A stretch of DNA of 28,557 nucleotides from Deltaproteobacteria bacterium Ga0077550 (lineage in GTDB: Bacteria; Myxococcota_A; Polyangia; Nannocystales; Nannocystaceae), in NCBI GenBank assembly GCA_001464385.1, contig LNFB01000258.1:1-28557 (forward strand). Reading direction: 5' to 3'. This document shows, one piece after another, positions 26,412 through 28,555 of the stretch (position 1 is the first letter of the stretch; each line of letters starts with the position of its first letter). The position numbers and the translations under genes were made by a program. The notes under the pieces were generated by a model, which had not been told where the DNA came from, ran no database searches, and worked only from the letters and a program-made list of their open reading frames with translations.

Positions 26412-27644
26412 ATGGATGAACGAGGCAACAAGCGCGACTTGGTGCTCGCGCCCAGCGAGTACGCGTACATGCAGGACGTCACCAAGGGCGTCATCAAGAC
26501 CTATACCGGTCCGACGGTGATCAACCCGACGGCGCAGGAGCGACCGGTCCGGTTCAACGGCGACACGAAGCGCTTCGAGCCGTGCGGGCTCGAGGAGGCG
26601 GTGCAGATCAGCCCGATCGCGCCCGAGGGCTACTACCTCATCCTCAAGAACCCGTCGGTGCGCGGCGATCACCCGAGCGCGGGCACGGTGCACCCGAGCC
26701 CCGAGCTCGACGTCGGGAAGAAGATCAACATCACCGGCCCCTGCAACTTCGCGCTGTGGCCGGGGCAGATCGTCAAGCTGGTGTCGGGCCACCACCTGCG
26801 CTCCAACCAGTACCTGCTCGTGCGCGTCTACAACGAGGAGGAGGCGCGGCGCAATTGGGGCCAGGCCGTGGTCAAGCCCGCGACGGCCGAGGGCGCGGTC
26901 GAGCCCGCGCCGCTGGCGACGCCGCTCGATCTGTCGGTCGGCAAGCTCTACATCATCAAGGGCACGGACGTGTCGTTCTACATCCCGCCGACCGGCGTCG
27001 GTGTGGTGCCCGACGAGTCAGGCAAGTACGTTCGCGACGCGCTCACGCTCGAGCGGCTCGAGTACTGCATCCTCGTCGACCAGAACGGCAAGAAGCGCTA
27101 CGAGCGGGGCCCGCAGGTCGTGTTCCCGCAGCCGACCGAGTCGTTCATCGTCCGCGACACCCACCGGAAGTTCCGCGCGCTGGAGCTCAACGAGATCCAG
27201 GGCCTGCACATCAAGGTGATCGCGCCGTACACCGAGGGCGGTCGCGACTTCAAGGAGGGCGACGAGATCTTCATCACCGGCAAGCAGACCTCGATCTACT
27301 TCCCGCGCGAGGAACACTCGCTGGTCCGCTACGACGGCAAGGACAAGCACTTCGCCGTGGCGGTGCCCGCCGGCGAGGCGCGCTACGTCATGAACCGCAA
27401 GACCGGCGAGATCCGCATGGCCCGCGGCCCGGCGATGCTGCTGCCGAACCCCACCGACGAGGTCATCGTGCGCCGCGTGCTCTCCGAGAAGGAGGCCGCG
27501 GTGTGGTACCCGGGCAACGAAGAGGCGATCCAGTACAACCGCAGCCTGCGGCGGCGCCGACGACCCGCGCCGGCGTGGTGTCCGAGGGCGACTACGAGCG
27601 CAGCCAGAAGCGCGGCGGACGGCCGCAGGGCGCCGGCGCGGTGA
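26412..27644 (+). CDS. major vault protein (MVP) homologue, N-terminal part (MVP/vault repeat domains)
   Basis: ORF 26349..27644. The best start is ATG 26412 (MDERGNKRDLVLAPSEYAYMQDVTKGVIKTYTGPTVI), which has GGAGG ~10 nt upstream. This compares with eukaryotic MVP [31 protein letters not shown]. Also ISPIAPEGYYLILKNPSVRGD compares with VTVPPRHYCTVANPVSRD, and YCILVDQNGKKRYERGPQVVFPQPTESF compares with [34 protein letters not shown]. The frame then terminates (…YNRSLRRRRRPAPAW…*) while homology continues in the -1 frame. Confidence 0.8.
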   Translation: MDERGNKRDLVLAPSEYAYMQDVTKGVIKTYTGPTVINPTAQERPVRFNGDTKRFEPCGLEEAVQISPIAPEGYYLILKNPSVRGDHPSAGTVHPSPELDVGKKINITGPCNFALWPGQIVKLVSGHHLRSNQYLLVRVYNEEEARRNWGQAVVKPATAEGAVEPAPLATPLDLSVGKLYIIKGTDVSFYIPPTGVGVVPDESGKYVRDALTLERLEYCILVDQNGKKRYERGPQVVFPQPTESFIVRDTHRKFRALELNEIQGLHIKVIAPYTEGGRDFKEGDEIFITGKQTSIYFPREEHSLVRYDGKDKHFAVAVPAGEARYVMNRKTGEIRMARGPAMLLPNPTDEVIVRRVLSEKEAAVWYPGNEEAIQYNRSLRRRRRPAPAWCPRATTSAARSAADGRRAPAR

Positions 27645-28555
27645 CGATGGATCAGTCGAGCGTGTCGCGCGACACGGCGGCGATGGTCGGCGACGTGCTC
27701 GAGCGCGGCTCGAACTTCACCCAGCCGCGCACGATCGTCTTCAACAGCAAGTACGAGGGCGTGCCGACGCTGAACCTGTGGGTCGGCTACGCGATGCTGG
27801 TCGTCGACAAGCAGGGCAAGCGGCGGGTCGAGCTCGGGCCCAAGACCGCGCTGCTCGAGTACGACGAGTCGCTCGAGATCCTCGAGCTGTCGACCGGCAA
27901 GCCCAAGTCGACCGAGAAGCTGCTGCGCACCGTGTACCTGCGCGTGCTCAACAACAAGGTGTCCGACGTCTGCGAGGTCGAGACCAGCGACCACGTCAAC
28001 GTCGAGCTCAAGTACTCGATGCGGGTCAACTTCACCGGCGAGCCCAACAAGTGGTTCGAGGTCGAGAACTACGTGAAGTTCCTCTGCGACCACGTGCGCT
28101 CGGTGTTGAAGGGCACGGTCAAGAAGGTCGGCATCGAGGCGTTCTACGCCGACGCGGTCGACATCGTGCGCGACACGATCCTCGGCAAGGGCACGCCGCG
28201 GCCGGGCATGCTGTTCACCGAGAACGGCATGCACGTCACCGACGTCGAGGTCCTCGGCGTCGAGATCGGAGATCCGCGGATCGCCGACCTGCTCGGCGCC
28301 GCCGAGCTCGAGACCATGCAGAGCCACATCACGCTGTCGCGGGCGCGTCGCAACCTCGTCGTCGTGCGCGAGCAGGAGTCGATCCGGCAGCAGGACGCGG
28401 AGGCGCGCACCGAGACCTCGACCAAGCTCGCCGAGCTCGAGACCCGCGAGTTGCAGGCCAAGCTCGCCGTGGTCCTCGCGTCGGTCGCCGCCGAGGTCAA
28501 GGAGCACGAGGAGCGCAAGGCCGCGGTCATCGCCCGCAACGCGGCGTCCGACGTG
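27548..28555 (+). CDS. MVP homologue continued in -1 frame (repeat 9, shoulder and start of cap-helix region); runs off the window end
   Basis: The frame is open from before 27545 to the end of the window. The translation is ...NFTQPRTIVFNSKYEGVPTLNLWVGYAMLVVDKQGKRRVELGPKTALLEYDESLEILELSTGKPK... (compare MVP [51 protein letters not shown]). Next is ...FEVENYVKFLCDHVRSVLKGTVKKVGIEAFYADAVDIVRDTILG (compare [44 protein letters not shown]). An E/R/A-rich coiled segment like the MVP cap-helix follows. The antisense ORF 27383..28507 is an artefact. The ORF track does not list open-ended ORFs. Confidence 0.7.

Follow-up and report, generated by a model that had tools for sequence, protein, structure and literature searches.

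The window analysed here is the whole of a 28,557-bp NCBI contig, and its 3' end is occupied by a forward-strand gene for a major vault protein (MVP) homologue. Translation of the window in the three forward frames shows that the MVP-homologue gene does not stay in a single frame. The frame-0 open reading frame opens at 26349, with the ATG at 26412 (MDERGNKRDL...) as the likely true start, and carries the gene to about 27550, where ...EAAVWYPGNEEAIQYNRSL is followed by RRRRRPAPAWCPRATTSAARSAADGRRAPAR and a stop codon. Frame 2, in turn, reads ...AAAPTTRAGVVSEGDYERSQ... (also ...AAAPTTRAGVVSEGDYERSQKRGG...) and is free of stops up to the window end at 28557. Between 26409 and 27540 the third-position GC (GC3) of frame 0 amounts to 96%, and between 27650 and 28557 that of frame 2 to 98.7%; both halves are therefore coding, and the frame truly changes. 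A preliminary description of this DNA had reported the switch and placed it in ctgcggcggcgcc..., along with a tail that is out of frame and the TGA at 27642-27644, and all of these are borne out, at the coordinates given there, by translation and GC3. Because the window is the entire contig, the gene is also cut at its 3' end. The features of the gene are collected in Table 1, where P0001 and the L-numbers denote the intact relatives introduced below.

Table 1. Features of the MVP-homologue gene at the 3' end of the window.
Feature	Position	Strand	Basis
5' part of the gene, frame 0, native codons M1-R380	26412..27550	+	Identical to P0001 residues 1-380; GC3 96%; collinear with PDB MVP ~279-412
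Deletion junction, 13 bp absent	27549..27551	+	Base-by-base comparison with L001-L004 and L080/L081
Out-of-frame tail, 30 codons (RRRRPAPAWCPRATTSAARSAADGRRAPAR), ending in TGA 27642-27644	27551..27644	+	Translation; the whole 410-aa product is P0121
3' part of the gene, frame 2, native codons A385 to about 719	27551..28557	+	Pfam MVP_shoulder and Vault_3; GC3 98.7%; identical to L001
GTGACGATG, possible translation-restart site	27641..27649	+	Read from the sequence; inferred
CCCGGGC, the one formal X XXY YYZ heptamer of frame 0 around the break	27509..27515	+	Judged a chance match

The frame-2 half matches the Pfam family MVP_shoulder (PF11978) with 89.1 bits against a cut-off of 25 (E 2.7e-25), and Vault_3 (PF17795) with 32.2 bits against a cut-off of 28.8 (E 1.2e-7). 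The corresponding scores of the intact allele P0001 are 87.2 and 41.6 bits. The frame-0 half matches major vault protein chains of the PDB weakly and collinearly (residues ~279-412, E about 2e-3 to 0.04), while the N-terminal 200 residues give no detectable MVP match. When P0001 is compared with solved MVP chains, its residues 216-350 pair with 279-412 and its residues 468-760 with 470-783. As a whole, the AlphaFold2 model of P0001 is of low quality (mean pLDDT 49, pTM 0.25) and can be trusted for the shoulder and the cap helix only, the latter being modelled as a continuous helix from residue 626 to 762 (pLDDT about 70-88) that aligns with MVP 647-783. What the window contains of the 3' part runs from the variable linker through the last repeat and the shoulder into this cap helix, which the contig end cuts off at about residue 719. 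The MVP_shoulder and Vault_3 matches, together with the collinear PDB matches, uphold the relationship to MVP proposed in the preliminary description, and close relatives are annotated by JGI as 'major vault protein'. The gene shows the sequence-level features of the MVP family.

Bacterial homologues of MVP have been reported in Myxococcales, Cytophagales and others, including gliding bacteria (Daly et al. 2013, PMC3762200; Sokolskyi 2019, bioRxiv 10.1101/872010); for Plesiocystis pacifica, two copies are reported (PMC3762200). The present gene resembles them in its MVP_shoulder and Vault_3 domains, its collinearity with MVP chains, its long C-terminal helix and its myxobacterial host; unlike them, the window copy is broken by a frameshifting deletion of 13 bp and cut by the contig end. 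Identity with the eukaryotic protein is low, and no Pfam family matches the N-terminal repeats.

The nature of the break becomes apparent from intact relatives. A provisional join of both halves, used as a protein query, returned more than 5,000 relatives, the best of which (P0001) is a continuous protein of 833 residues from a Myxococcales MAG, 99% identical to the query, that reads ...NRSLRQVMQAAPTTRAG... across the break. The DNA of the intact gene was taken from four contigs, namely L001 (JGI 3300002461, a 120-kb contig), L002 (Logan SRR8367294), L003 (Logan SRR8367301) and L004 (GCA_016792735.1). Base-by-base comparison places the absence of 13 bases in the window at GCCAGGTGATGCA, between 27549 and 27550, or equivalently at CCAGGTGATGCAG, between 27550 and 27551. 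Codon R380 loses its third base, and codons Q381, V382, M383 and Q384 are gone from a protein that is otherwise of 833 residues when intact. The codon for R380 is CGG in the window and CGC in the intact allele, encoding Arg either way. As 13 bases are 12 plus one, the downstream reading shifts from frame 0 to frame 2, that is, by -1 after residue 380, and the length of the deletion, not being a multiple of three, brings a premature stop 30 codons further on, at 27642-27644. Apart from the 13-bp gap, the window and L001 do not differ at any position in the 2,146 bp of the gene that can be compared, and comparison with L002-L004 shows the identical gap in the window, with only two to three SNPs besides.

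This result corrects the preliminary description, which had explained the switch by a single-base slip in an indel-prone tract of GC repeats. The gap measures 13 bp, Tandem Repeats Finder detects no tandem repeat at the site, and the GCGGCGGCG run that suggested such a tract arises from the deletion itself. A one-base insertion would bring back the frame without bringing back the ancestral protein, and the intact open reading frame is of 833 residues instead of the ~850 expected.

Two origins for the deletion in local sequence were considered and set aside. Deletion between direct repeats is rejected, as none of at least 6 nt is present at the site and the microhomology of the ends amounts to only 1 bp when the L001-type allele (CGC codon) is taken as the reference, and to 3 bp (GGC) when the L080/L081-type allele (CGG codon) is. 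As to a hairpin, an inverted repeat, CGCAGCCTGC...GCAGGCGGCG, does span the site in the intact allele (L001 11129-11158), with arms of 10 nt that are 90% complementary, and the 13 missing bases correspond to its 10-nt loop plus 3 nt of the right arm. The hairpin is, however, no more stable than shuffled sequence (z = -0.56), so that a hairpin-driven deletion is a weak idea only.

The intact form of the gene is found in six assemblies from other samples (3300002461, SRR8367294, SRR8367301, GCA_016792735.1, SRR21685394 and SRR10241522), which represent the same or a closely related population; four of the six differ by at most three substitutions over the stretch of the gene that the window contains, and the 13 bases are retained in the Logan contigs of SRR21685394 and SRR10241522 as well. 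The 90% identity cluster has five other members, each of them of full length at 832-835 residues. A broader orthologue set comprised 68 species-level loci from genome_contigs, mostly from Nannocystaceae, Kofleriaceae and Haliangiales MAGs, of which 66 reach the site, and every one of these reads through it in a single frame. Likewise, an alignment of 120 homologues has no gap at the deleted positions in any sequence. Conservation there is high: L379 is found in 120 of the 120 and R380 in 117, Q381 is present in 89, and position 382 is occupied by L, V, I or M in all 120. The segment past the deleted residues is a linker whose length varies among orthologues, some of which run straight from NRALRQ to ...KYEGVP. 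Neither a break nor a frameshift was thus seen in relatives, whether among the 66 loci, the 120 protein homologues or the six near-identical assemblies.

The reading that best accommodates these observations, to which a probability of roughly 0.7 is given, is that the window carries a genuine 13-bp deletion allele of a Nannocystaceae-like MVP homologue, a very recent loss of function at the strain level. The loss takes one base of codon 380 together with codons 381-384, and beyond residue 380 the frame moves by -1. Translated from its normal start, the gene then gives a product of 410 residues, made up of 380 native residues and an Arg/Ala/Pro-rich nonsense tail of 30-31 residues, and missing from this product are the last repeat, the shoulder and the cap helix. 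In the rat vault structures, as an example of eukaryotic MVP, these parts hold the shell together, the main lateral contacts being those of shoulder and cap helix. As these parts are lost, the gene is most likely inactivated and the truncated product is unlikely to work; the deletion would presumably abolish function. The break itself sits in a helix of moderate confidence (residues 370-385, pLDDT about 56-67 in the AlphaFold2 model), directly before a linker modelled with low confidence, and by the rat MVP domain boundaries it falls in what we take to be the equivalent of the eighth MVP repeat.

The event is very recent, the closest intact allele being without any further difference from the window in the gene. 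Signs of relaxed selection, such as further lesions or a raised dN/dS, would need differences from L001 beyond the deletion, and there are none in the 2,146 bp; their lack is in keeping with a very recent event and adds no independent sign of decay. Among the three options offered by the preliminary description, the recent pseudogenising mutation is the best supported. That description had looked to orthologues with the same break as the mark of a genuine pseudogene, and no orthologue has it, all 66 loci that reach the site being read through.

The lesion shares with frameshift pseudogenes and strain-level loss-of-function indels, as they occur in bacterial populations and MAGs, a length that is not a multiple of three, a microhomology of 1-3 bp, a premature stop, and its restriction to one lineage or sample. 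No essential difference from ordinary frameshift pseudogenes is apparent. It is an ordinary strain-level frameshifting deletion of a known kind, and only its host gene, an uncharacterised bacterial MVP homologue, is unusual.

The most serious competitor, which we consider improbable while giving it real weight, is that the gene of the organism is intact and that library preparation, sequencing or assembly produced the deletion as an artefact. It could have arisen, for example, by template switching across the short inverted repeat during amplification, or by a minor or erroneous path being taken as the consensus. All other assemblies of the population are intact, as such an artefact would have it, and the deleted bases, being the loop plus 3 nt of one arm of the inverted repeat, form a configuration that could promote template switching, although the hairpin does not exceed shuffled sequence in stability. 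The break is recorded in a single other place, a 1,992-bp Logan contig of SRR29904083, which encodes the exact truncated product of 410 residues, nonsense tail included, in a gene of equal length (1,233 nt). No record exists of the 431-residue start variant or of the 980-residue kinase product. The two assemblies come from different pipelines, which argues against an error of either one; they may nonetheless share one sequencing run, so that, as far as the DNA sample goes, the records are perhaps not independent. If Logan contigs are built, as is understood, from k-mers of the reads, so that they can spell only junctions that the reads contain, the junction was almost certainly in the reads, and the deletion was probably not made by one assembler.

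The quality of the remaining contig points in the same direction. Compared over its full length with two other assemblies of the population, the window has eight SNPs in 19.3 kb and one 1-base gap, private to L010, against L010, and 25 SNPs against L009; within 28.5 kb, no indel other than the 13-bp deletion is private to the window. With the differences being otherwise SNPs only, and the 1-base gap belonging to L010, the assembly is not indel-prone. No long repeat that could mislead an assembler flanks the site, and none is long enough to collapse an assembly. The contig ends counsel some caution: the NCBI contig breaks 1 kb past the deletion, inside the same gene, as an artefact might lead one to expect, and that of Logan extends for about 100 bp past the stop. 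The proximity of both ends to the lesion hints at strain heterogeneity or low coverage. Scans of genome, metagenome and viral contigs for the junction string, with or without a variable gap, returned no match; the same scans missed the known intact allele, so that their negative outcome is uninformative. Taken together, we infer that the deletion lies in the DNA of the organism rather than being an in-vitro artefact.

A further alternative, considerably less probable than an artefact, accepts the deletion as real and supposes that the gene works as two pieces, translation stopping at the TGA and restarting at the GTG at 27641 or the ATG at 27647. Two separate fragments would result, an N-terminal one of repeats and a C-terminal one that comprises the last repeat, the shoulder and the cap helix. 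Such a restart is conceivable, as the frame-2 GTG overlaps the frame-0 stop (GTGA, 27641-27644) and the codon of a native Met, the ATG, follows the stop after 2 nt (GTGACGATG); besides, the break lies at the edge of the length-variable linker, whose residues 405-471 are modelled with low confidence. Against it, no convincing Shine-Dalgarno motif is read before the restart codons, no split orthologue occurs in the 66 species-level loci or the 120 protein homologues, and the allele has lost conserved residues and gained a nonsense tail of 30 residues. Slighter still is the chance that the deleted allele might be a naturally segregating split gene, whose two polypeptides, coupled via GTGA...ATG (27641-27649), would co-assemble or give an on/off or altered-shell variant.

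The last alternative, a programmed -1 ribosomal frameshift or transcriptional slippage that restores a near-full-length protein, is effectively refuted by tests of slippery site, RNA structure, Rfam and conservation. Frame 2 is free of stops throughout the overlap, from 26420 to its end, as 72% GC alone would give. The one formal heptamer in frame 0 (CCCGGGC, 27509) lies 35 nt upstream of the true switch (27550), where the frame-0 homology ends; its use would turn 12 further conserved frame-0 residues (NEEAIQYNRSLR) into nonsense, and the intact alleles, for which no shift is needed, carry it as well. Homopolymer runs of at least 4 A/T or at least 5 G/C are absent, the RNA from 27516 to 27640, at -56.3 kcal/mol, folds no better than shuffled versions with their mean of -59.0 (z = +0.76), no Rfam family is matched at E <= 1, no orthologue needs a frameshift, and near-identical strains have a plain continuous open reading frame. 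The likeness to programmed -1 frameshifting, as known from dnaX, IS elements and phage tail chaperone genes, is limited to two overlapping frames with homology continuing in the -1 frame, whereas a functional slippery site, a stimulatory structure and a conserved shift are absent from the window gene. The preliminary description was right in ranking this option as the least likely.

With a genuine deletion as the preferred reading, the annotation should show a single gene that is frameshifted or disrupted and that is incomplete where the contig ends, rather than two hypothetical proteins, and a check of the reads should come before the MAG is credited with an intact MVP homologue. In Myxococcota, bacterial homologues of MVP are both widespread and strongly conserved, with more than 5,000 relatives in the databases, and they are functionally uncharacterised. 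A natural null allele in a near-identical environmental population suggests that the gene is dispensable under some conditions, and the deleted allele could act as a natural knockout, should the strain be brought into culture.

Several further observations concern the surroundings of the gene and its relatives. In all intact assemblies, the MVP homologue is followed downstream by a gene for a NADAR-domain protein (L001 12584-13159, just past the 3' end of the window) and then by an EF-G paralogue, while an ECF sigma factor and Ser/Thr kinases are encoded upstream of it; the pairing of MVP with NADAR may deserve attention in the family at large. Close MVP homologues, with 65-78% identity, are also found on contigs labelled Candidatus Achromatium, a gammaproteobacterium (L029, L074 and L077), and one on a contig labelled Alphaproteobacteria (L020); these copies probably reflect myxobacterial contamination or mis-binning, not the true distribution of the family.

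The window as a whole is 99.8-99.95% identical to contigs from metagenomes of drinking-water or activated-carbon filters (JGI 3300002461 AADWTP_10000269, ERZ922821 and ERZ27275293), and the same population recurs across many samples. With respect to L001, a cluster of six SNPs at 22308-22401 lies in a Ser/Thr kinase-TPR gene on the reverse strand (20826-23768), four of them within 10 bp (22308, 22310, 22313 and 22317), and the 12 kb around this cluster are otherwise identical to L001. The cluster could represent a small recombination tract or cross-talk between TPR repeats.

Other loci of the window vary between assemblies or stand out by their conservation. The gene at 23913-24584 on the forward strand, coding for a small, apparently secreted protein, holds an internal repeat rich in Pro, Ser, Thr and Asp (...ATDPSATDPSATGPSATDPSA...) at 24003-24135, and its product is of 223, 218 or 207 residues depending on the assembly, so that the number of repeats varies between strains. 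The five fetched Logan contigs and, by its gene geometry, the SRR29904083 contig all start 654-661 nt upstream of the MVP start (about 25751-25757). This shared start point falls inside a gene for a Cys-rich protein of 312 residues on the reverse strand (25293-26231), where k-mer assemblies regularly break. Finally, an open reading frame of 831 residues on the reverse strand (6768-9263), with a GC3 of 96%, a strong sign of coding, and no Pfam family on record, is exactly conserved in three other assemblies.
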